Assembly: GCA_964588165.1 (NCBI GenBank)
Contig: CAZPMS010000006.1
Location: forward strand, 3,425-67,424
Reading direction: 5' to 3'
Length of the DNA stretch: 64,000 bases
From: an uncultured Gammaproteobacteria bacterium
GTDB taxonomy: Bacteria; Patescibacteriota; Patescibacteriia; UBA1558; UBA10009
The translations under genes and the position numbers were made by a program. The first letter of the stretch is position 1. Every line of letters begins with the position of its first letter. The notes under the pieces were generated by a model, which was given only the letters and a program-made list of their open reading frames with translations, was not told the origin of the DNA and did not search any database. Shown here piece by piece: positions 2,284 to 48,954 of the stretch.

Positions 2284-2403
2284 ATTTATTTTTATTTAAT
2301 TTTATTTTGTTTTATATCTATTTTTGATAGTATTTTAAATATATCAGTAACAATAAAGCTGTCAATTAATATCTTGTTAATAAATTGTGAAAAAATAACA
2401 CCA

Positions 2404-2497
2404 ATAACACACGATGCTCACGAATGGCTCACAGATAGCGCGAGGATATATGTGCGCTATTAGTGTAATATCAGTGAGCAACAGTATTATTAGTGAT
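2404..2497 (+). repeat. noncoding element F, copy 1 (homologous to 47986-48077)
   Basis: Shares the exact 15-mer GTGCGCTATTAGTGT (2452-2466 vs 48031-48045), AGCAACAGTrTTATTAGT (2477-2494 vs 48057-48074) and ATAACAC..GATGCTC in the same order and orientation. Confidence 0.6.
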
Positions 2498-2504
2498 TAT
2501 TCTG

Positions 2505-5075
2505 TTACTTATTAGCAGTGTCCTGCGAAAGCTTCATCCTTTCCAAAATCTCCTGTTCTACAATATTCCTGTCTCGGCCGTACTTTAAGCGCGAAGCTTC
2601 TTTAACTTTAAAAACGATTGATTTATCACCAGGCTTTGGCGGATAAGTTTTAATGTTAAAAGCCGGCACGTTCTGGTTATCTATTAATAATTTTAGATAG
2701 GCGTTAAACTTAGGAATATTTATTAAATCATATTCATTAAAAACAGGGTTAAACTGTTTAGCCACTAGTTCGGCATCATCCGGGCCTATCCTAAAGGAAG
2801 CCATTGTACCTACATTGCCAAAAACAGAATCCCTGATAGAAGTATCGTTGCCTTTTACCAGCTGGCCCACATATTGGTGCGCCACAGTTAAACTTAATTT
2901 ATATTTTCTGGCTTCTGATAAAATTATAGAAATGCTTTCGGTAATGAAATTTTGGAACTCATCTATATATAAATAATAATCGTGCCGCTTTTCTTCTGGC
3001 AATTCTACTCTGGAGAGGGCGGATATTAGAATCTTGCCAACAACTACCATGCCCAATAAATTTGCGGACATATCACCAATGGTCCCTTTGGCCAGTTTAA
3101 TTAGCAAAATCTTTTTCTTGTCCATTACTTCTCTAAAATTAAAAGAACTTTTTTGCTGGGCAATAATCGGCCTTAATAAATCGCTGGAGACAAATGGAGT
3201 TAATTTACTGGTGATATAAGGAACCATATTAGCCAATGATGCTTCGCCGCCGGCTTTTTCTGCCTCTTTCTCCCAAAAATCCCTTACCACCGGATTTACA
3301 CATTTAGAAAGCTTGTATCTCCTAAAATTAGGGTCGGCTAAAACCTTGGGTACTTCCAATAAAGTTGAGCCGGACACAGGATCTTCCATCATTAGCAGCA
3401 TGGCATTACGCATATACTGTTCAAACATTGGGCCACCGGTGGCTTTAAGGTCGTAGAGCTTATCAAAAATATTTATCATTTCGTTTATCACGAAAGTTTT
3501 TTGTTCCGGCGTGCTAAACTCCAGCATATTAAGCCCGATAGGCCTCTTGGTATCAGCTGGATCAAACAAAATTACATCGTCTACTCTGCCTTCGGGGATA
3601 TGCTCCATTACTGTTTCTATTAAATCTCCGTGGGGATCTATAACGCAAACGCCTTGGTTATTTTTAATGTCTTGGATTATCATGTTGGACATAAAAACAG
3701 ATTTACCGGTACCGGACTTGCCAATTATATACATATGCCTTAAGCGGTCCGAACTTTTAATTCTTATTGGCGCTTTTATTCCCCGATATAAATTCTCTCC
3801 CAAAATAAGGCCCTCTTTGGGTAAATTAAGAGGCGGCGTGGCCTTCCTGGCTTCTAACCAATTTATATTAGGTGTTTCTGAAGAAGGCAAAGGCAAGTGC
3901 CATAGGCTGGCCATTTCTTCAGCATTTAAAATTAAACTTTTTTTTGGAATAAAACTTCTATGGATAAAATTGGAGATCAATTTGGGAACTTTAATAAATT
4001 TTGCTTTTTTAAATCCATTGCCATATTCATAAATATTAAACTGAGAAAAAGCATTAATAATATTTTCTAAATAAGCCTCGGCCTTTTGCCTGTTTGGAGC
4101 AGAAACCACTACCCTTATGTTTGCTTCCATGCCTGCCTTGCTGGTTTTTTCTTCAATACCTTTTACCACCTCTGCTTCCATGGGAGAAAGCATTCTTCTT
4201 TCATCTGCTTCTTCTATATTTTTAGAAGCATCCTTTTTAGTTTTAAAAAAGCTTAAAGTGCCAACCACAGCGTTGGTTAGCTTATCAAAAATATTGCCTA
4301 AGCCTGCTTTCCTTAAAGCTACACTTAATTTTTTACCCTGTTGCATTTCTCTTGCTACAATTACTCCTTTGCGATGCCAGCTTTTATAAGCAGACCTAGC
4401 CACCAGCTGAATGGCTGCTCCTGATTCTTCACCTATTTTTGAAAAAGCATTGGTTAAAGCATTTAACGGATCGCTATCAGACTTTTTGTAAGTTTTAATT
4501 GGAAAAATAAAATCTCTGCCAAACTTTAAATAACTGCCAACCACCACGCCCTGGGCAGAAAAAATATTATAGTCTTCTAACTCCTCTATCTGTGCAAAAG
4601 GGTAAGAAGCATGGATTTGCTGTTCTAGGGTATCTTTTAAATAATCAGGAATGGCTACATAAAAATTAATCTTGCCATTTTGGGTTACGATTTCTACAGA
4701 AAAATGGTCTGATCTGCCAAAGATCCAGCTCTTTGTCCCTCTCTGGGCTTTAAGGCCGCCTAAAACAGAAAAAATGTTTTCCGCTACACCTATTTGTTCT
4801 TGGATTGTTTGGGGGGAATCATCGGCACCTTCTTTTTTTAAATTTTCTTTAGGCACGGTAATGAGCAAAATTTTCATTTTTAAAGCAGAAGGAACCTTAT
4901 TGCTTTTGGCTAAAAAACTTCTAACAATTAAAAAGGCGGTTATTAAAACCACCAACAAGATAAATATTAAAATAAAAGCTAAAAACCAAGTATTTTCCAA
5001 AAGGGCATTAGCCTGGGCAGTAAAAGGCGAATTTGACTCTATAACTATTTGCAAGGCAAACAAAGTTAAATACAT
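2505..5075 (-). CDS. VirD4/TraG-family (type IV coupling protein-like) P-loop NTPase with N-terminal membrane anchor
   Basis: 856 aa. N-terminal TM segments, Walker A IGKSGTGKS, Walker B-like YYLYIDEFQNF, then AHQYVGQL. Assignment by motif only. Confidence 0.65.
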   Translation of the reverse strand: MYLTLFALQIVIESNSPFTAQANALLENTWFLAFILIFILLVVLITAFLIVRSFLAKSNKVPSALKMKILLITVPKENLKKEGADDSPQTIQEQIGVAENIFSVLGGLKAQRGTKSWIFGRSDHFSVEIVTQNGKINFYVAIPDYLKDTLEQQIHASYPFAQIEELEDYNIFSAQGVVVGSYLKFGRDFIFPIKTYKKSDSDPLNALTNAFSKIGEESGAAIQLVARSAYKSWHRKGVIVAREMQQGKKLSVALRKAGLGNIFDKLTNAVVGTLSFFKTKKDASKNIEEADERRMLSPMEAEVVKGIEEKTSKAGMEANIRVVVSAPNRQKAEAYLENIINAFSQFNIYEYGNGFKKAKFIKVPKLISNFIHRSFIPKKSLILNAEEMASLWHLPLPSSETPNINWLEARKATPPLNLPKEGLILGENLYRGIKAPIRIKSSDRLRHMYIIGKSGTGKSVFMSNMIIQDIKNNQGVCVIDPHGDLIETVMEHIPEGRVDDVILFDPADTKRPIGLNMLEFSTPEQKTFVINEMINIFDKLYDLKATGGPMFEQYMRNAMLLMMEDPVSGSTLLEVPKVLADPNFRRYKLSKCVNPVVRDFWEKEAEKAGGEASLANMVPYITSKLTPFVSSDLLRPIIAQQKSSFNFREVMDKKKILLIKLAKGTIGDMSANLLGMVVVGKILISALSRVELPEEKRHDYYLYIDEFQNFITESISIILSEARKYKLSLTVAHQYVGQLVKGNDTSIRDSVFGNVGTMASFRIGPDDAELVAKQFNPVFNEYDLINIPKFNAYLKLLIDNQNVPAFNIKTYPPKPGDKSIVFKVKEASRLKYGRDRNIVEQEILERMKLSQDTANK

Positions 5076-25192: not shown

Positions 25193-25222
25193 CCAGCCAA
25201 AGGCTGGTGAGCCTACGGCTCA
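25193..25222 (-). repeat. GC-rich twin-hairpin element, copy outside a tRNA
   Basis: Plus strand CCAGCCAAAGGCTGG + TGAGCCTACGGCTCA. The first hairpin is identical to that at 34325-34339. ATCTAG occurs on both sides. Confidence 0.7.
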
Positions 25223-31374: not shown

Positions 31375-31995
31375 TTATCCTTTAAAATCGTTTTTATATA
31401 TAAAATCTACAATATTTCGTATTTGACTCATGTACGGTAGATACATATCATGTAAAATGACTTTCTTTAATTGCCATTTTTCTATGTTTATATCCCGTTC
31501 AGATTTGTCACGATATTTAGCTTTCAACAATGCAATATTTTCAGGTGTATCAACCAAAATATTAAGATTGGATTGATTCTTAAAAATTATAGATGATAAT
31601 AACCCCTCAAAAAGAACTAATTTACATTTAGAAGCATCAATGTAAATTTCTTTATCTAACTCTCCGTTACTAATATTGTAACAATTTTTTTCTACAAATT
31701 TCTGTTTTTGTTTAATTTTTTCTAACACCTCCTGTGCCTTTTCTTTATTATACCAATCCATCAAAACACCTTTATCTTGCTCAAATTTATCTTTCCACTG
31801 TGTTCGAGGGATCTTGAAAAATAAATCCATCGTAAGTAAAATGGATTCTTTAAGGGAATATTTAATAATCTGATCTGCAAGATAACTTTTACCACTTCCT
31901 ACAATACCCTCAATAACTATAATAACTGGAAAATTTGTTTGCTCCTGTAAACTAATTATTTTTTGCTTAATTTTTTTAAATGTTACTGAGTCCAT
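31375..31995 (-). CDS. P-loop nucleoside/nucleotide kinase-like protein
   Basis: 206 aa. Walker A GIVGSGKS. Confidence 0.5.
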   Translation of the reverse strand: MDSVTFKKIKQKIISLQEQTNFPVIIVIEGIVGSGKSYLADQIIKYSLKESILLTMDLFFKIPRTQWKDKFEQDKGVLMDWYNKEKAQEVLEKIKQKQKFVEKNCYNISNGELDKEIYIDASKCKLVLFEGLLSSIIFKNQSNLNILVDTPENIALLKAKYRDKSERDINIEKWQLKKVILHDMYLPYMSQIRNIVDFIYKNDFKG

Positions 31996-32034
31996 AAAAT
32001 TCCCTTTTCAGTAATTAATATCTTATCATGCAAA

Positions 32035-32132
32035 TGGCAGGGATTTGCCCCGCTTTTCGTGAAAGGCGGGATAAAAACCCAGACCAACGGTTTTGGACCC
32101 AGCCCTTCGCGAAGGGCTGGGTGGAGACCCTC
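32035..32132 (-). pseudogene. ghost of tRNA-Trp 3' half carrying two GC hairpin insertions
   Basis: Minus strand GAGGGTCTCCA[CCCAGCCCTTCGCGAAGGGCTGGG]TCCAAAACCGTTGGTCTGGGTT[..CCCGCCTTTCACGAAAAGCGGGG]CAAATCCCTGCCA aligns to the tRNA-Trp anticodon stem through CCA. The 3' acceptor strand is mostly deleted. Confidence 0.75.
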
Positions 32133-32148
32133 AAAAATCATATTATTT

Positions 32149-32223
32149 TGGCAGGAGCGCTAGGATTTGAACCCAGACCAACGGTTTTGGAGACCGTCAT
32201 GCTACCATTGACACCACGCTCCC
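32149..32223 (-). tRNA. tRNA-Trp (anticodon CCA)
   Basis: 75 nt cloverleaf GGGAGCG..ACGGT-CTCCAAA-ACCGT..CTGGG-TTCAAAT-CCTAG-CGCTCCT-G-CCA. CCA is encoded. Confidence 0.9.
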
Positions 32224-32258
32224 ATCAAAAAAATATGATTATCTTAAATTTAATCTCT

Positions 32259-32483
32259 TTAAAAGACCATGATAAGCGATCCATATTGTTTTAGTTTTCT
32301 TTCCCTCACTTTGGCATCTATTTCTTTCTGATACGCTTCATAATAAAACAATTTGGGATTTTTCATCCGTTTAGTAGTATACACTTTTCCACTTTTATGT
32401 TCAGACAATCGTCTATTTAGGTTATTAGTATACCCTATGTATATTTTCCCATGATCATCAAGTTGTAAATAAACATAATACAT
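32259..32483 (-). CDS. small GIY-YIG nuclease-family protein (COG2827-like)
   Basis: 74 aa. YVYLQ..GKIYIGYTNNLNRRLSEH..YYE. Ends 36 nt upstream of tRNA-Trp on the same strand. Confidence 0.8.
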   Translation of the reverse strand: MYYVYLQLDDHGKIYIGYTNNLNRRLSEHKSGKVYTTKRMKNPKLFYYEAYQKEIDAKVRERKLKQYGSLIMVF

Positions 32484-32552
32484 AATCGCTTTTCTTAATT
32501 CTTAAAAATAGATATCAAAAAACACTACTTACCGATTACTGTTTACTAATAA

Positions 32553-32963
32553 CTAATTTCTCAGATACTGTTCAAGATTTAAATCATCAATAAGTTCTGG
32601 AAATTTCTTTAGCAAATAAACATGGCGATCTGTTCTTTCACCGGTAGCCTCATTAAACAGTGGGTTGCTGCCGGTATATACTGTATCTTTACTGTTACCG
32701 TATTTATTCAGGTTTTTTTCTTCCAGCCATTGGTCTATTTTTTCTTTGCCTTGTGAAGTGAGTTGAGCCACGAAATCATCAGCCCATCCTTCACCCTGTT
32801 CTTCCCACCAGTTTTGAGCTTCATCCAAACCTTGGTTGATTAGTAAAGGAGTTTTTTCTTCAACTTTAGTTTGCCAAGAAGCCAGCCAGGCAGAAATATC
32901 TTCATGCCAGATAAGGCCGACTAAAGCACCCATTATTATTATGAATAAAAGCGTCTTTATCAT
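32553..32963 (-). CDS. hypothetical secreted/anchored protein
   Basis: 136 aa, N-terminal hydrophobic helix, Trp/Glu-rich. Confidence 0.5.
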   Translation of the reverse strand: MIKTLLFIIIMGALVGLIWHEDISAWLASWQTKVEEKTPLLINQGLDEAQNWWEEQGEGWADDFVAQLTSQGKEKIDQWLEEKNLNKYGNSKDTVYTGSNPLFNEATGERTDRHVYLLKKFPELIDDLNLEQYLRN

Positions 32964-32981
32964 ACTTTTGATAAATTTAGC

Positions 32982-33137
32982 TTATTTAGTTTCTTTGTGG
33001 AGGGTATGTTTTTTACAATGTTTACAGAATTTCTTAAGTTCCAATCTTTCCTTTAAAGTTTTTTTGTTCTTTCTGGAATATTGGTTGACTCTTTTGCACT
33101 CTGTACATTCTAACTTTATCAAGTTATCTTGCGACAT
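32982..33137 (-). CDS. rpmG: 50S ribosomal protein L33
   Basis: Not in the ORF track (51 aa): [51 protein letters not shown]. Has the CxxC...CxxC zinc ribbon and the LHKETK end typical of L33. Confidence 0.9.
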
Positions 33138-33211
33138 AGTATTTTTAGTTAAATTACAAATTATTTAATGGCCGCGCCATGAAGTTTATGAGCGCAGCGA
33201 ATAATACTTCA

Positions 33212-33286
33212 TGGAGCCGAGAAGAGGAATCGAACCCCCAACCTACAGTTTACAAAACTGTTGCTCTACCATTGAGCTATCTCGGC
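33212..33286 (-). tRNA. tRNA-Thr (anticodon UGU)
   Basis: 75 nt GCCGAGA-TA-GCTC-AATGGTA-GAGC-A-ACAGT-TTTGTAA-ACTGT-AGGTT-GGGGG-TTCGATT-CCTCT-TCTCGGC-T-CCA. Confidence 0.9.
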
Positions 33287-33308
33287 GTGTATCTATTTTT
33301 AAAATGTT

Positions 33309-33415
33309 CCTACAGTTTATGCCGCCTTTAGGAGGTGGCAAAACTGTTGCTCCCTGCCCCGTTTACTCCAAACAAATGTGAGGAGTTATGCGGGGTACCA
33401 TTGAGCTACAACGGC
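33309..33415 (-). pseudogene. ghost tRNA-Thr(UGU), 5' two-thirds, different acceptor (GCCGTTG), two hairpin insertions
   Basis: GCCGTTGTAGCTCAATGGT[43-44 nt hairpin 33353-33396]GAGCAACAGTTTT[GCCACCTCCTAAAGGCGGC 33321-33339]ATAAACTGTAGG. T-arm and 3' acceptor are missing. Confidence 0.8.
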
Positions 33416-33553
33416 TCGTTAGACTCACGATGCCTCTCAACTTCGTTCGAGACACTCGACTTCTTCTTAATATATCTCATTATATATCTCATTAATAAAT
33501 TATGGTCGTAGGCCACGAGCGTAGTATCGAACAAAGTGAGATACGAAGTCGAG

Positions 33554-33638
33554 TGGTGGGCCGGGCAGGATTCGAACCTGCGAAGGCAGAGCCAACAGAT
33601 TTACAGTCTGTCCCGTTTGACCGCTTCGGTACCGACCC
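33554..33638 (-). tRNA. tRNA-Tyr (anticodon GUA), class II with long variable arm
   Basis: 85 nt GGGTCGG..ACAGA-CTGTAAA-TCTGT-TGGCTCTGCCTTC-GCAGG-TTCGAAT-CCTGC-CCGGCCC-A-CCA. Confidence 0.9.
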
Positions 33639-33882
33639 ACAAATTTTTAACTAGCTCCTTAAAGGCTCTTCCTCCTTTATAAGATTTTATCAGAAGCTCT
33701 CTTTTATATGCATCTTGTTTAGAAAAATATCTTTCCGAATAAACCAACTTCCAAGGGACACCTGATTTTGTTGATTTTACAAAACCTTTATTATGTCTAG
33801 CTAAACGATTAAATAAATTCTTACAATGACCTGTATAGTATCTATCTAAAGATTTACTATGCAATATATAAACTATAAACAT
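33601..33882 (-). CDS. small GIY-YIG nuclease-family protein whose 3' end is encoded by tRNA-Tyr
   Basis: IVYILHS..RYYTGHCKNLFNRLARH. ATG at 33882 (the track uses GTG at 33885). The last 38 nt are tRNA-Tyr positions 1-38, and the stop TAA is the GUAAA of the anticodon loop. Confidence 0.8.
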   Translation of the reverse strand: MFIVYILHSKSLDRYYTGHCKNLFNRLARHNKGFVKSTKSGVPWKLVYSERYFSKQDAYKRELLIKSYKGGRAFKELVKNLWVGTEAVKRDRL

Positions 33883-33896
33883 CACTTTTCATTTAA

Positions 33897-33995
33897 GATT
33901 TATGCCCGCCTATGGCGGCACCCCGCCGTAGGCGGTGGCAGTCTGTCCCGTTTATCCCGCCAAAGGCGGCGATTTGACCGCTTCGGTACCGACCC
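33897..33995 (-). pseudogene. ghost tRNA-Tyr 5' half (positions 1-41) with hairpin insertions in the D-loop and anticodon loop
   Basis: GGGTCGGTACCGAAGCGGTCAAA[TCGCCGCCTTTGGCGGGAT, TTT duplicated]AAACGGGACAGACTG[36-nt double hairpin 33903-33938]TAAATCT, then diverges into the GIY-YIG gene. Confidence 0.8.
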
Positions 33996-34086
33996 GATGG
34001 AGCCGTTGTGCGGACTCGAACCACAAACCCCTTCCTTACCCCCGCAAGATTTCGTTTCACTCAATCTGCGGGGCAAGCATGGAAGT

Positions 34087-34202
<116 letters not shown>

Positions 34203-34318
34203 AAGTGCTCCCTGCCCCGCTTACTCCGAACAAAAGTAGGAGTTATGCGGGGTACCAACTGAGCTACAACGGCAATAATGTTTTTTTAAAAAAACATATT
34301 CTTATGGCATAACTTCTT

Positions 34319-34371
34319 TCTACCCCAGCCAAAGGCTGGTCCGCCTCTGACGGAAACTGAGCTATGTCGGC
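34319..34371 (-). pseudogene. third tRNA-Thr-like 5' fragment (acceptor GCCGACA) with a twin hairpin in the D-loop
   Basis: GCCGACATAGCTCAGTT[TCCGTCAGAGGCGGA][CCAGCCTTTGGCTGG]GGTAGA, then decays. The perfect palindrome ATGTTTTTTTAAAAAAACAT (34279-34298) lies downstream. Confidence 0.65.
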
Positions 34372-34394
34372 ACGTTAGGCATTACTTTATTTAA

Positions 34395-35279
34395 CTATAA
34401 CTTCTCAATCACTTCCTTAAATTCTGATAATTTTTGATTTTCAGGATTAACTTCCTTTAACTGGCTAAAAGCCTTTAAAGCAGCACCTTTATCTCGGACT
34501 ATTATACTGACTTCTATCAAAAAGTCAAGAACTTTGGGGTTATTAGGCTCAATACTGGCAGCACGGCTAATTATTTCAAAGGCCTGTTCCGGCTCATCTA
34601 AATTTAAATATACTTCGGAAAGGTCCAAATAGCTGGAAATATCGGTTGAATCTAATTCTAAAGATCTCTGTAACTCCTGCTGGGCCTTTTTTAAATCACC
34701 TTTATCTGAAGCAATTTCACCCAAGCTCCGATAAACAGAAGAATCCTGATCGTTTAAATTTAATAGGAATTCAAAGGTTTCTTTAGCGTGTTCGTAATCT
34801 TTCTGTTCTAAATAAAGTTTGCCTAAGCCTTTATAGGCAATAGTGTTTTTATTATCAACCTGCAGGATTTCAATATACTTTTTTTCCGCTTCAGCATATT
34901 TGCCAAGTTTAGCTAAAGTTTCTGCTTCAGTTAAAAGCTGGTTAGTAAACTGCTGTTTATCAACTTTATCTTTAAAGCTTGATTTGAGCGTCTTGTGCCT
35001 GTATTTTTCCTCCAACTCTATCAAGCGCTGATACCAATTTTTAGATTTACTTATAATTAGTCTGCCCAAGGGTTTTAAAAATAATAATGATTTATCCAGA
35101 GTTCCTTTAAATCTTCTATCTAACCTTTCTTCTAAAATTTTTCTTTTTACCTGAAGCTGCTTTACCATGGGGGTTGCCTTAGAATTTACAGCTACTGCCT
35201 TGGGTACCTTCTTTAAAAAAATGTAAGCAATAACTCCCAAGCTAACTATAATGATTACTATTAAAACGTAAAAAAACAT
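34395..35279 (-). CDS. TPR-repeat protein with N-terminal membrane anchor
   Basis: 294 aa. Repeated AxxxYxxAL/GxYxxA TPR-like units (e.g. LGKYAEAEKKYIEILQVDNKN). Confidence 0.7.
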   Translation of the reverse strand: MFFYVLIVIIIVSLGVIAYIFLKKVPKAVAVNSKATPMVKQLQVKRKILEERLDRRFKGTLDKSLLFLKPLGRLIISKSKNWYQRLIELEEKYRHKTLKSSFKDKVDKQQFTNQLLTEAETLAKLGKYAEAEKKYIEILQVDNKNTIAYKGLGKLYLEQKDYEHAKETFEFLLNLNDQDSSVYRSLGEIASDKGDLKKAQQELQRSLELDSTDISSYLDLSEVYLNLDEPEQAFEIISRAASIEPNNPKVLDFLIEVSIIVRDKGAALKAFSQLKEVNPENQKLSEFKEVIEKL

Positions 35280-35284
35280 ATTTC

Positions 35285-36139
35285 TTAAATATTAAATAAA
35301 TTGGCTTTTTTTTCAACTACTTGGCTTACTGCTTCTATAGAAGGTTTTATAACTTCACGGGGGTCAACTAAATTCCCTTCCATTTTTATAGTTTGTTTTA
35401 AACTATTGGTAAAGGCAATTCTTAAATCGGTATCCACATTAATTACCCTAACGCCGCCGCCGATTGCCTTTTTAACTTGTTTATCTTCTACGCCAGAACC
35501 GCCATGCAGAACAATGGGAATATCAATTTCCTTAGTTATTTTTTTTAATCTGGCAAAATCAATATTTTCTTCTCCTACAAAATTACCATGCATGCTGCCA
35601 ATAGAAACAGCTACAGTATTAACCCCTGTTCTTTCTATAAATTCCTTAATCTGTTCTGGATTTGTCATTAACTTTTTTAAATCTTCTCCTTGCTGCATCT
35701 TTATAAGCCCTTCTTTGCCGTAAATGTTGCCCAATTCTCCTTGAACCCAAACTCCTTTTTCTTTAGCTATTTCCACTGCTTCTTTGGTTAGCTTTATATT
35801 TTCTTCAAAAGAATACTCTGAAGCGTCCATGTGGACAGAAGAAAAACCCAGTTCAACACAAGCCCTTAGAACTTCCAAATTTTTACCGTGATCTAAATGA
35901 ATGGCTATAGGCACATCTCCACTTTCTTTTTCTATGGTCTTCTTAATTAAACAGTACAAAGCCTCTAAACCGGCATACTTTATGGATTTTTCAGTAACTT
36001 GAATAATAGCGGGTAAATTTGACTTCTTTATTCCACTGACAATACCTTGGGTAACTTCTAAATTAAAAGTATTAAAAGCGCCTGCTGCTGTTTGGTTTTT
36101 TACTTTTTCTTCAACTATTTCTTTAATATGAGTTAACAT
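35285..36139 (-). CDS. fba: class II fructose-bisphosphate aldolase
   Basis: 284 aa with the HLDHG, SVHMDAS and VLHGGSG motifs. Confidence 0.9.
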   Translation of the reverse strand: MLTHIKEIVEEKVKNQTAAGAFNTFNLEVTQGIVSGIKKSNLPAIIQVTEKSIKYAGLEALYCLIKKTIEKESGDVPIAIHLDHGKNLEVLRACVELGFSSVHMDASEYSFEENIKLTKEAVEIAKEKGVWVQGELGNIYGKEGLIKMQQGEDLKKLMTNPEQIKEFIERTGVNTVAVSIGSMHGNFVGEENIDFARLKKITKEIDIPIVLHGGSGVEDKQVKKAIGGGVRVINVDTDLRIAFTNSLKQTIKMEGNLVDPREVIKPSIEAVSQVVEKKANLFNI

Positions 36140-40484: not shown

Positions 40485-41048
40485 TTATCTTTTCTTTTTC
40501 ACTTTAGTATTTTTTCTCTTTGGCTTTTTTGTGGTTCTGCGTTTTTGCGCTTTTGCGGTCTTCGCGCCTTTGCGTTTAATCTTCTTTATTTCTGAAAATA
40601 GATGGACTATTGGCTCTTCCAACTTTTTATAATCATTAACTGTCATTTTGATGCTTTCCACCAATGAACCTCCGGAAAAAATTACTTTCTTTACTTTGTC
40701 AAAACCCTTATCTAGAATAACTTCAACTTTATGGATAGAACCAAATCCGGTTAATGAACCGGGCTTAATTTTAAAAGCTTTAATAAGTTCCGCTTCTTTT
40801 GGAATAACCACTTTTTTGGCCTTAAGGGCTTTTTTTAATTTAGATAAATTTACGTTCTTGTCTGAAGCCAAAATTAACAAATAATAGTTCTTATCAGCTT
40901 TAACAACTAATGACTTGGCGATTTCATCTAATTTGACTTTAAGAGTTGCCGCAGCATCAAAGGCAGTATAAACTTTTTTATGCGGTACAATTTCGTATTT
41001 TACTTTTTTATCATCTAAATGTTTTAGCACTTTCTTTGAAGTTGACAT
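40485..41048 (-). CDS. YbaK/aminoacyl-tRNA deacylase-domain protein with a Lys/Arg-rich C-terminal tail
   Basis: The YbaK-like core covers ~150 aa. The last ~35 aa (KKIKRKGAKTAKAQKRRTTKKPKRKNTKVKKKR) are encoded by a reiterated CGCAAAA-type word tract. Confidence 0.7.
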   Translation of the reverse strand: MSTSKKVLKHLDDKKVKYEIVPHKKVYTAFDAAATLKVKLDEIAKSLVVKADKNYYLLILASDKNVNLSKLKKALKAKKVVIPKEAELIKAFKIKPGSLTGFGSIHKVEVILDKGFDKVKKVIFSGGSLVESIKMTVNDYKKLEEPIVHLFSEIKKIKRKGAKTAKAQKRRTTKKPKRKNTKVKKKR

Positions 41049-41064
41049 ATATTTTAATTTAATT

Positions 41065-41123
41065 ATCTGCGGAATATCTGCGTGTCATCTGCGCCTGCCC
41101 GCCTATTGCGGGGTCAATCTGCG
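41065..41123 (+). repeat. phased heptamer array D (ATCTGCG x4) interrupted by a GC hairpin
   Basis: ATCTGCG at 41065, 41076, 41087 and 41117 (spacing 11, 11, 30). The CCCGC-CTATT-GCGGG hairpin lies between them. The array is 17-75 nt upstream of the minus-strand start at 41048. Confidence 0.75.
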
Positions 41124-48777: not shown

Positions 48778-48954
48778 TGGCTGCCGGGGCTGGATTTTCA
48801 CCCCGCCGTATTGGCTGTGGAGACAGGACTCGAACCTGTAACATTCGCATTAACAGTGCGACGTTCTACCATTGAACTACTCCACAACTAATGTAGATAG
48901 ACGAAAATACTGCCCGCCAAAGGCGGGTCCGCCCTTGGCGGAAACTACCCGGCA
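48778..48954 (-). pseudogene. outer (disrupted) tRNA-Asn-like gene enclosing the intact tRNA-Asn
   Basis: The 5' piece is TGCCGGG-TA-GTT[twin hairpin 48913-48942]CAGTA (48954->48908). The 3' piece is ...CCCGGCA-G-CCA (48809->48778). The acceptor halves TGCCGGG/CCCGGCA are perfectly complementary. The anticodon arm is missing. Confidence 0.7.
48812..48886 (-). tRNA. tRNA-Asn (anticodon GUU)
   Basis: 75 nt TGTGGAG-TA-GTTC-AATGGTA-GAAC-G-TCGCA-CTGTTAA-TGCGA-ATGTT-ACAGG-TTCGAGT-CCTGT-CTCCACA-G-CCA. A U1-A72 pair also occurs in E. coli tRNA-Asn. Confidence 0.9.

Follow-up and report, generated by a model that had tools for sequence, protein, structure and literature searches.

Ghost tRNA genes in a Patescibacteria tRNA cluster are probably the debris of small selfish elements built on an SLX1-like GIY-YIG nuclease gene

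The stretch of DNA analysed here, hereafter the window, comprises 64,000 nt of contig CAZPMS010000006.1 (GCA_964588165.1, positions 3,425–67,424 of the forward strand) with a G+C content of 36%, and its region 32000–34400 holds a cluster of bacterial tRNA genes, encoded on the minus strand, that extends upstream of rpmG and around it. Four intact tRNA genes of the cluster, Thr(GGU), Tyr, Thr(UGU) and Trp, were called with ARAGORN and Rfam covariance models (cmscan over 31500–35500, E ≤ 1), and a fifth, Asn, lies at 48812–48886. Between the intact genes stand truncated or interrupted tRNA copies, which we call ghosts and in which the same scan detects no tRNA and no other Rfam family, and two small open reading frames (ORFs), g1 and g2, of the GIY-YIG nuclease family. 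Such a relic is present at four tRNA genes of the window (both Thr genes, Tyr and Trp) and probably at all five. The view that ghosts are relics of earlier gene copies had been proposed before, in a reading of the window that we refer to as the original prediction and that did not relate them to the cluster's GIY-YIG genes, and is supported here. We argue that they are probably the debris of small selfish elements that reside in tRNA genes and are built on an SLX1-like GIY-YIG nuclease gene. Labels such as L088 denote homologous or orthologous loci of other genomes.

The Thr(GGU) locus is layered, and all features described in this and the next paragraph lie on the minus strand. Farthest upstream, fragment 3 (34316–34371) is a Thr(GGU)-type 5' ghost (GCCGACATAGCTCAGTT) with a double hairpin in its D loop (34325–34354), followed by GGTAGAAAG. 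The spacer between fragment 3 and the next gene (34274–34315) holds ATGTTTTTTT at the point where a GIY-YIG ORF starts in L094 (ATGTTTTTTGTT...) and is probably the scar of an ORF deletion. The outer tRNA-Thr(GGU) (33998–34273; acceptor GCCGTTG/CAACGGC) is complete and carries three inserts. With these in place it is called as a tRNA by neither ARAGORN nor Rfam, and with all three removed in silico it becomes a canonical 76-nt tRNA-Thr(GGU) in ARAGORN. The D loop contains a 42-nt, GC-rich, two-level hairpin that ends in CAGG (34211–34252; −20 kcal/mol, folding z = −4.0), and the anticodon loop contains, after ATG, a 38-nt hairpin (34040–34077; z = −4.2) whose ends resemble the D-loop hairpin in inverse orientation. 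The third insert, 117 nt in the anticodon stem (34086–34202), is composed of a left arm (34180–34202), an intact inner tRNA-Thr(GGU) (34104–34179; acceptor GCCGAGA/TTTCGGC; 67.6 bits) and a right arm (34086–34103). Its arms contain an 11-bp perfect inverted repeat (TGCCAATAGCC/GGCTATTGGCA) that extends the acceptor stem, or, taken as a longer repeat, 27 nt of 81% complementarity, and CTT is duplicated at both junctions. The inner and outer genes are identical over positions 8–46 and differ in acceptor stem and T arm. The outer gene, counted among the old copies in the original prediction, is disabled but complete over 33998–34273, and it starts at 34273.

Downstream, a tRNA-Tyr ghost (33896–33995) covers positions 1–42 and matches the intact Tyr gene exactly except for two inserts, a D-loop hairpin (33952–33972) and an anticodon-loop double hairpin (33903–33938). 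It is followed by g1 (33601–33882, 93 aa, PF01541) and by the intact tRNA-Tyr(GUA) (33554–33638, ARAGORN and Rfam). The g1 ORF runs 38 nt into this tRNA (33601–33638) and stops at the TAA of the anticodon loop (CTGTAAA); the L091 ORF apparently also enters tRNA-Tyr, and because the L094 ORF ends just before the tRNA, the overlap is probably incidental. In the 138-nt spacer after Tyr (33416–33553), CTCGACTTCG... and ...GAAGTCGAG form long-range inverted repeats and AATGAGATATAT is repeated in tandem, and structured GC-rich sequence is likewise present after Tyr in relatives. The tRNA-Thr(UGU) ghost (33309–33415; acceptor 5' strand GCCGTTG) had been recognized as a relic in the original prediction; it is limited to the 5' part of the gene (positions 1–46) and bears, besides its D-loop hairpin (33353–33395), a second insert of 19 nt in the anticodon loop (33320–33338). 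After a 22-nt spacer (33287–33308) comes the intact tRNA-Thr(UGU) (33212–33286; acceptor GCCGAGA/TCTCGGC; 73 bits), with rpmG next. At the Trp locus, g2 (32259–32483, 74 aa, PF01541) lies 35 nt upstream of the intact tRNA-Trp(CCA) (32149–32223), which is flanked by a 9-bp inverted repeat (AATCATATT). A Trp 3' ghost (32035–32130) runs from the anticodon arm to CCA; it has an 8-nt deletion, a 25-nt palindrome in the anticodon loop (32097–32121, with CCA duplicated) and a T-loop hairpin (32047–32075). Finally, a double-hairpin module (48910–48953; hairpin 48910–48942, preceded by GCCGGGTAGTT) ends 24 nt upstream of tRNA-Asn. It is homologous to the double hairpin of fragment 3, has a short and weak tRNA-like part, and is probably a tRNA relic like the others.

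Hairpins are common to these ghosts. Those in the D loops of the Thr(UGU) ghost and the outer Thr(GGU) gene (33353–33395 and 34211–34252, bounds slightly revised from the original prediction) both begin right after GGTA and end in CAGG before GAGC; they are 42–43 nt long, about 90% identical and fold with z = −3.6 and −4.0, so the homology claimed for them holds. Within the window the sequence occurs in these two copies only and is not a dispersed repeat. The CAGG-ending class of D-loop hairpins is also found in ORF-less ghosts of L002, L004, L090 and L094. The right arm beside the nested Thr(GGU) ends in GGCAGG, which suggests that the nested gene lies in a hairpin loop of this kind. The sequence AACTCC...GGAGTA, which forms the inner stem of the Thr D-loop hairpin, is also that of the ancestral Thr(GGU) anticodon stem, possibly by coincidence, since hairpins in relatives show no such match. 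When the Tyr-ghost double hairpin was aligned in eight ghosts from seven genomes, 104 of 104 base-pair cells were paired, with three compensatory pairs and loops of 3–45 nt, which argues that the stems are selected as structure, be it in DNA or RNA. TG^TAAA is the position both of the 19-nt insert of the Thr(UGU) ghost (CCACCTCCTAAAGGCGGCA) and of the Tyr double hairpin (CCACCGCCTA...AGGCGGGCA); the former looks like a collapsed form of the latter, and the shared insert connects the Thr(UGU) ghost with the g1 element family. The D-loop hairpin present in the window, L002 and L004 is missing from L008, suggesting that hairpins accumulate with time. The hairpins might shield the ghost against cleavage, keep it from recombining with the intact copy, or act in RNA processing or stability. 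In a promoter and terminator scan, sites were no commoner than in shuffled sequence and no GC hairpin resembled an intrinsic terminator.

Small CCGCC/GGCGG hairpins number 37 in the window versus about 7 in shuffles, few of them outside tRNA loci. At 41040–41112, with no tRNA nearby, an intergenic hairpin ending in CAGGC (CCCCGCAATAGGCGGGCAGGC) belongs to the same class as the ghost hairpins, and around it are four CGCAGAT copies spaced about 10–12 nt apart. At 25193–25221, two adjacent small GC hairpins (GAGCCGTAGGCTC, CCAGCCTTTGGCTGG) occupy an intergenic gap, the second being the same sequence as one arm of the double hairpin of fragment 3.

The two nuclease ORFs match PF01541 at 8.4e-12 (g1, 45.7 bits against a cut-off of 22.6) and 7.8e-13 (g2, 49 bits). 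The tRNA-linked ORFs encode single-domain proteins of 74–94 aa with only PF01541-type matches, and NCBIfam matches to group-I-intron endonucleases are far below cut-off. The catalytic residues Y5, Y16, G18, R26, H30 and E62 are the same in all 15 tRNA-linked proteins compared, which come from several phyla. A profile of these 15 proteins matches the UPF0213 proteins BH0048 (1ZG2, 1.9e-17) and EF2693 (1YWL, 1.1e-12), with which they share the minimal single-domain size, followed by SLX1 (5e-6) and I-TevI (2e-3). Judged by these matches, the nucleases belong to the bacterial SLX1-like (UPF0213) family and not to the I-TevI/UvrC branch. The protein ends after the catalytic core, with no C-terminal DNA-binding domain, and because it is such a minimal SLX1-like domain, recognition of DNA structure (a cloverleaf or hairpin) instead of sequence is conceivable. 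Phylogenomics of the superfamily in 2006 described UPF0213/SLX1-like proteins as ancient, mostly vertically inherited repair-type nucleases and mentioned no link to tRNA (PMC1564403). Unlike in that view, the genes studied here behave as mobile passengers of tRNA genes.

With the g1 protein as sole query, 80 nuclease loci were gathered from one-genome-per-species contigs, with hosts in Patescibacteria, Bacteroidota, Ignavibacteria, Cloacimonadota, Omnitrophota, Planctomycetota, Chloroflexota and Acidobacteriota. A same-strand tRNA gene lies within 100 nt of the ORF in 63 of the 80 loci and within 300 nt in 70, a proximity that for a random gene we roughly estimate at well below 1%. In 57 loci the ORF sits between a tRNA and an exact copy, at least 12 nt long, of part of the same tRNA. 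These bracketed loci fall into two arrangements. In type A (28 loci, among them the window's Tyr), a 5' tRNA part reaching to about position 35–45, mostly ending near 35, is followed by the ORF and the complete tRNA; the copy sometimes takes in 10–12 nt of upstream flank (L008, L094). In type B (29 loci), the complete tRNA is followed by the ORF and a 3' tRNA part that runs from about position 44, mostly starting at 44. The displaced copy's anticodon arm is always spoiled by a GC-rich hairpin, which is inserted into the anticodon loop in type A and in type B replaces the arm by a conserved stem, TCCCGA...TCGGGA, alike in Ala, Lys, Leu, Thr or Met ghosts. The whole unit spans about 300–400 bp, and the sole ORF between the repeats is the GIY-YIG gene, on the tRNA strand. 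For 40 of 70 loci, where 8.3 would be expected, the most similar nuclease adjoins a tRNA gene of the same amino-acid specificity, a figure to which shared ancestry of related hosts contributes. An assembly artefact was ruled out, as the identical architecture is found in independent assemblies, including complete and isolate genomes (L007, L065 and L074 among the 80 loci).

Serial ghost arrays are seen in L031, L066, L050 and L004. In L031 (Bacteroidota, 2485–2947), positions 1–26 of tRNA-Lys are present in five copies about 72 nt apart, the last gap being 99 nt. In L066 (Bacteroidota, 2346–3445), three near-complete tRNA-Ala copies, each with a T-loop insert of about 50 nt, precede an intact Ala gene, a GIY-YIG ORF and a further ghost with a substituted anticodon arm. 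In L038, L044, L058 and L060 (around 3213–3317), ARAGORN reports pseudo-tRNAs (Phe, Thr, and undetermined with a 4-base anticodon) that overlap or adjoin the 3' end of the GIY-YIG ORF; these are type B ghosts and would be mis-annotated.

The same survey bears on a simpler account, which we consider quite improbable, in which the ghosts arose by plain local duplication and gene conversion, the palindromes are unrelated repeats in dead DNA, akin to repetitive extragenic palindromes (REPs) or miniature inverted-repeat transposable elements (MITEs), and the GIY-YIG genes are bystanders that use tRNA promoters. ORF-less ghost arrays such as those of L031, L066 and L004 agree with it, as do the similar GC hairpins in intergenic positions away from tRNAs (25193–25221 and 41094–41112) and the acceptor and hairpin shared by the two Thr ghosts, which conversion between loci 860 nt apart would give. 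Such an account does not sit well with the finding that, across many phyla (57 of 80 loci), a tRNA and part of its copy enclose the ORF and the breakpoints cluster, or with the conservation of hairpin position and stems along with the ORF across distant hosts. Two further observations that speak against it, the low divergence of the ORF and an ORF-bearing homologue of the ORF-less fragment 3, come from the orthologous loci.

These loci were anchored on the TPR gene upstream of the tRNA cluster (35–70% protein identity). A scan of metagenomes with this neighbouring TPR gene yielded 7 loci only, and the orthologous loci were instead reached via protein homologues; an exact-protein look-up of the window's L33 returned no record, so the comparison is with relatives and not with near-identical strains. 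The closest relative, L088, has a clean series of Thr(GGU), Tyr, Thr(UGU) and rpmG with no ghosts and no nuclease gene, and in L093, L098/99, L100 and L102 the tRNAs are tightly packed, again with no nuclease gene. Ghost, double hairpin and g1 ORF are present together at Tyr in the window, L091, L094–96, L002, L004 and L008, with an additional, second-generation Tyr ghost in L004. Occupied and empty orthologous tRNA-Tyr sites thus both exist among relatives. In the pair L091 and L094, the synonymous divergence (dS) of the g1 ORF is 0.066 and its ratio of nonsynonymous to synonymous divergence (dN/dS) about 0.4, while dS is 0.79 for the TPR gene, 0.60 for TIM, 0.40 for a 135-aa gene and 0.33 for rpmG. 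This 5- to 12-fold lower value indicates that the element's age falls far short of that of the host split and that it has moved horizontally. The 5' half of tRNA-Tyr is common to L091, L094, L004 and L008, which belong to distant classes, and is not shared by closer, element-free relatives, as expected from co-conversion during homing. In several pairs of loci the sole alignable block extends exactly from the tRNA 5' end through the ORF to the 3' end of the ghost. In L091, TCGGGTC stands right after Thr(GGU), where tRNA-Tyr begins in the window, and is followed by about 210 nt of palindromic GC-rich sequence before the Tyr ghost (2920–3135); this may be a still older insertion layer.

Fragment 3 is near-identical over about 55 nt to ghost B of L094 (1593–1650), which stands immediately before a GIY-YIG ORF and, after that, the intact Thr(GGU); this ORF belongs to the g3 subfamily and has about 38% identity with g1. 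From this we infer that the GIY-YIG gene of fragment 3 was deleted in the window, leaving ATGTTTTTTT where the ORF began.

The repeated Thr pieces that drew attention to the window are real, and chance falls far short of explaining them: the minus strand has five copies of GCCGNNNTAGCTCA, where 0.01 would be expected (0 of 100 shuffles). As originally described, the copies have three acceptor types, GCCGAGA in the intact genes (at 33286 and 34179), GCCGTTG in the Thr(UGU) ghost and the outer gene (33415 and 34273) and GCCGACA in a further upstream piece (34371), now delimited as fragment 3. Only acceptor positions 5–7 are informative, positions 1–4 and 8–14 being alike in the five copies and in most relatives. 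In nine related loci (L088, L090, L091, L093, L094–96, L098/99, L100, L081 and L002) the intact Thr(GGU) orthologue has the acceptor GCCGTTG, and the outer copy is therefore the ancestral allele. The inner allele (GCCGAGATAGCTCAGTTGGTAGAGCACTTCC...CCCCGTTTCGGCTCCA, with a new T arm) is unique in the sample; its GCCGAGA/TTTCGGC acceptor is found at Thr(GGU) in none of about 16 related loci. At Thr(UGU), the acceptor GCCGAGA/TCTCGGC and the T arm of the intact gene are those of the closest relatives L088, L091 and L094–96, so that here the intact copy is ancestral. No Thr(UGU) ghost is present at the orthologous position in L088, L091 or L094, and this ghost is a recent piece with Thr(GGU)-type positions 5–7.

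These alleles are the ground for an alternative that follows the original prediction closely, in which successive foreign tRNA-Thr alleles (GCCGACA, GCCGTTG, GCCGAGA) replaced each other at both Thr genes while a nuclease read the acceptor stem and new alleles were resistant to it. Three layers at Thr(GGU) (fragment 3, the outer gene and the nested inner gene), an inner allele absent at that gene from about 16 related loci, and nuclease genes within the cluster all fit, and serial replacement does describe Thr(GGU). The polarity assumed for Thr(UGU) was wrong: comparison of acceptor alleles among relatives places GCCGTTG as ancestral at Thr(GGU), and GCCGAGA is no newcomer at Thr(UGU), which was not replaced. 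The proposition that old copies share GCCGTTG and new ones GCCGAGA loses its force, as the shared acceptors look like a reciprocal exchange of positions 5–7 between neighbouring Thr genes, and such exchange between paralogues (gene conversion), which the original prediction had itself named as counting against it, would account for them as well as imported alleles do. No result ties the acceptor differences to a nuclease recognition site; the duplication breakpoints lie in the anticodon and variable loops, at positions 35 and 44, and not in the acceptor stem. Ghost and intact copy share their acceptor in most loci (L002, L004, L081, L090, L082); differences between ghost and intact copies are also seen in L081 Trp, L082 and L083 Tyr, L083 Pro and ghost B of L094. 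A search of viral contigs did not find the inner allele, and no donor genome was identified. On balance we hold successive allele replacement at both genes to be unlikely. In L081 (6838–7278), ghost and intact copy of Trp clearly differ: the ghost, on the upstream side of the GIY-YIG gene, is similar in D arm and anticodon stem to the allele of the window, and the intact gene on the downstream side has the allele of L093 and L100.

Nested genes form a group of their own. Clear cases are the window's Thr(GGU), L082 Tyr, L083 Tyr (two levels) and L083 Pro, with the same isoacceptor in the older copy, and in every one the central part is common to inner and outer copies and the acceptor stem differs. 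This switch of acceptor around an unchanged centre, together with the alternation of the L083 Tyr alleles (A, then B, then A), speaks for allele replacement. One possibility is that only whole-gene insertions could bring a new acceptor, because insertions by partial duplication must reuse the resident acceptor strand. In L083 (3220–3500) and L082 (1209–1460), tRNA-Tyr genes are stacked like Russian dolls, alleles GGGCAGG and GGGTGG(A/G) alternating from outermost to innermost, and the nested copies are each flanked by 18–19-bp inverted repeats beginning CCCGCACCA. In L083 (4590–4830), the anticodon stem of an older Pro gene houses an intact tRNA-Pro(CGG) with CTCGCTCTGT/ACAGAGCGAG as flanking repeat. 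The older gene has a G1-C72 acceptor, unusual for Pro, and bears hairpins in D arm and T loop. When these repeats were compared as possible MITE terminal inverted repeats, the window cassette showed its 11-bp inverted repeat and CTT duplication, and the repeats of L082, L083 Tyr and L083 Pro were unrelated in sequence. Inverted repeats as a general feature of tRNA genes in these genomes were ruled out: they flank few of 163 tRNAs, among which the nested cases stand out.

The completeness of the outer Thr(GGU) gene raises the question of function. In archaea, multi-intron and split tRNA genes carry short inserts in the D, anticodon and T loops, or occur as pieces flanked by complementary sequence. 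The copies described here resemble them in their short loop inserts and in gene pieces with complementary flanks, and they might accordingly be spliced or split tRNAs, or else the ghosts might be tRNA-like processing signals for a polycistronic transcript. The outer Thr(GGU), whose inserts fall exactly in loops, the structural selection on hairpin stems, and the T arm and acceptor 3' strand kept by type B ghosts, which ARAGORN sometimes calls as tRNAs (L038, L044, L058, L060), are what such functions would predict. Yet the outer Thr(GGU) is the only copy with complete exons; the Thr(UGU), Tyr and Trp ghosts each represent only half of a tRNA, the Trp ghost has its 8-nt deletion, and an intact copy stands beside every ghost, so that, unlike in archaea, the copies are truncated or redundant, in a bacterial host (the cluster contains rpmG). 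Rfam (E ≤ 1) detects no intron family and no tRNA in the ghosts, and the inserts are simple hairpins of 19–43 nt that clean relatives dispense with. On reading the sequence, no bulge-helix-bulge pairing is obvious at the hairpin borders. We know of no bacterial machinery able to splice such inserts. We find functional copies hardly credible; the processing-signal version is compatible with our explanation of the ghosts as element debris.

We propose the following course for such an element. At its core is a stand-alone nuclease gene of about 75–95 codons, usually a few to a few tens of nucleotides from the tRNA; the element interrupts the tRNA gene near the anticodon or variable loop, a duplicated tRNA segment restoring a working gene. 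The putative nuclease would break an unoccupied tRNA gene near one of these loops, and the break would be repaired from an occupied copy (homing) or by one-ended invasion and end joining. Repair would copy the ORF with the adjacent tRNA segment and so create a partial duplication, the ghost. Ghost and intact copies might later exchange sequence, and ORFs would decay or be deleted to leave ORF-less pairs of ghost and tRNA. Inverted copies of tRNA 5' fragments in ORF-less ghosts (L002, 1985–2005) fit fold-back repair of breaks. For the window, this suggests that an element of the g3 subfamily entered Thr(GGU), left fragment 3 and then lost its ORF; that hairpins disabled the outer gene with GCCGTTG, as did a whole new copy of Thr(GGU) placed in one hairpin's loop; and that the g1 element family now at Tyr also made the Thr(UGU) ghost, where the ORF was lost. 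The acceptors and D-loop hairpin shared by the Thr ghosts would stem from exchange between neighbouring Thr loci and not from two imported alleles.

Several observations weigh against this proposal. The ORF-less nested cases (the window's Thr(GGU), L082 and L083 Tyr, L083 Pro) have no adjoining nuclease gene, and nested genes with their case-specific inverted repeats may have been made by another mechanism. Identity over positions 8–46 combined with a different acceptor and T arm in the inner and outer Thr(GGU) would be predicted by neither simple import nor simple duplication. The DNA-binding domain to which classical GIY-YIG homing endonucleases owe their specificity is absent from these nucleases; cleavage of tRNA genes and the target preference of these proteins are putative, and in the intact tRNA beside the ORF no change is visible that could make it resistant to the adjoining nuclease. 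The dS contrast concerns a single genome pair and 79 codons only, and the patchy distribution could partly reflect precise loss via direct repeats. Moreover, the D-loop bases of the Thr ghosts stay isoacceptor-specific even though an acceptor and a hairpin common to both ghosts lie on either side of them, so that a single conversion tract is insufficient. Given the evidence on both sides, our confidence that the ghosts are element debris is moderate.

The nearest studied system appears to be SegB, a GIY-YIG enzyme of phages T4 and T6 that cuts inside tRNA genes and is enriched beside tRNA genes of many isotypes, its breaks leading to segmental (tandem) amplification of tRNA-Tyr (PMC2330249, PMC13096335). 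As with the Seg enzymes of T4-like phages, a GIY-YIG gene stands among tRNA genes, with presence/absence polymorphism and horizontal spread. The proteins described here differ in being half the size, without a DNA-binding domain and of the SLX1-like/UPF0213 branch, and the elements differ in being bracketed by a partial duplicate of the target tRNA with a conserved anticodon-arm hairpin and in residing in bacterial chromosomes; a search of viral contigs returned no relatives of the nuclease, and no phage link was found. Tyrosine-integrase elements insert in tRNA genes, carry a copy of the displaced end and leave a direct repeat (att sites). Shared with these are the tRNA target, the gene restored by an element-borne copy and the ghost on the far side, and type B looks exactly so. 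The present elements lack an integrase or recombinase gene, span only about 300–400 bp, duplicate the 5' part in type A and have a hairpin-disabled ghost. Group I introns, some with homing endonucleases, occur in Patescibacteria tRNA anticodon loops at 34/35–35/36 (10.1101/2025.07.03.662931), that is, in the same host phylum and the same loop region. Such introns have a ribozyme core and about 180 nt or more, whereas the inserts seen here measure 19–43 nt, match no intron in Rfam and leave function to be kept by gene duplication, not by splicing.

In full-text literature searches of incomplete coverage, we found no description of tRNA-linked UPF0213 genes or of nested tRNA genes, and the tRNA-resident GIY-YIG element behind the ghosts is, as far as we found, widespread and undescribed. 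Tentatively, and short of calling it probable, we suggest that it represents a cross-phylum class of selfish elements in which nucleases of the minimal SLX1-like GIY-YIG type invade tRNA genes of many isotypes by homing, the host being kept alive by partial tRNA duplication and the displaced copy being disabled by a hairpin; the Russian-doll genes of Patescibacteria, with a new acceptor in each round, would then point to an arms race between alleles and nuclease, possibly with structure-specific recognition. If the explanation is true, it would give a concrete role to many bacterial UPF0213/SLX1-like proteins, long annotated only as hypothetical repair nucleases, and partial target duplication would be a third non-lethal route into an essential RNA gene, beside self-splicing and integrase att copies. 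Fragmentary tRNA pseudogenes, calls of pseudo-tRNAs and tRNAs that seem to be missing or doubled in metagenome assemblies would be accounted for, and so small a nuclease, with a choice of target that may be guided by structure, would have appeal as a tool. It would also provide a mechanism for the turnover of tRNA alleles and for concerted evolution within tRNA clusters.

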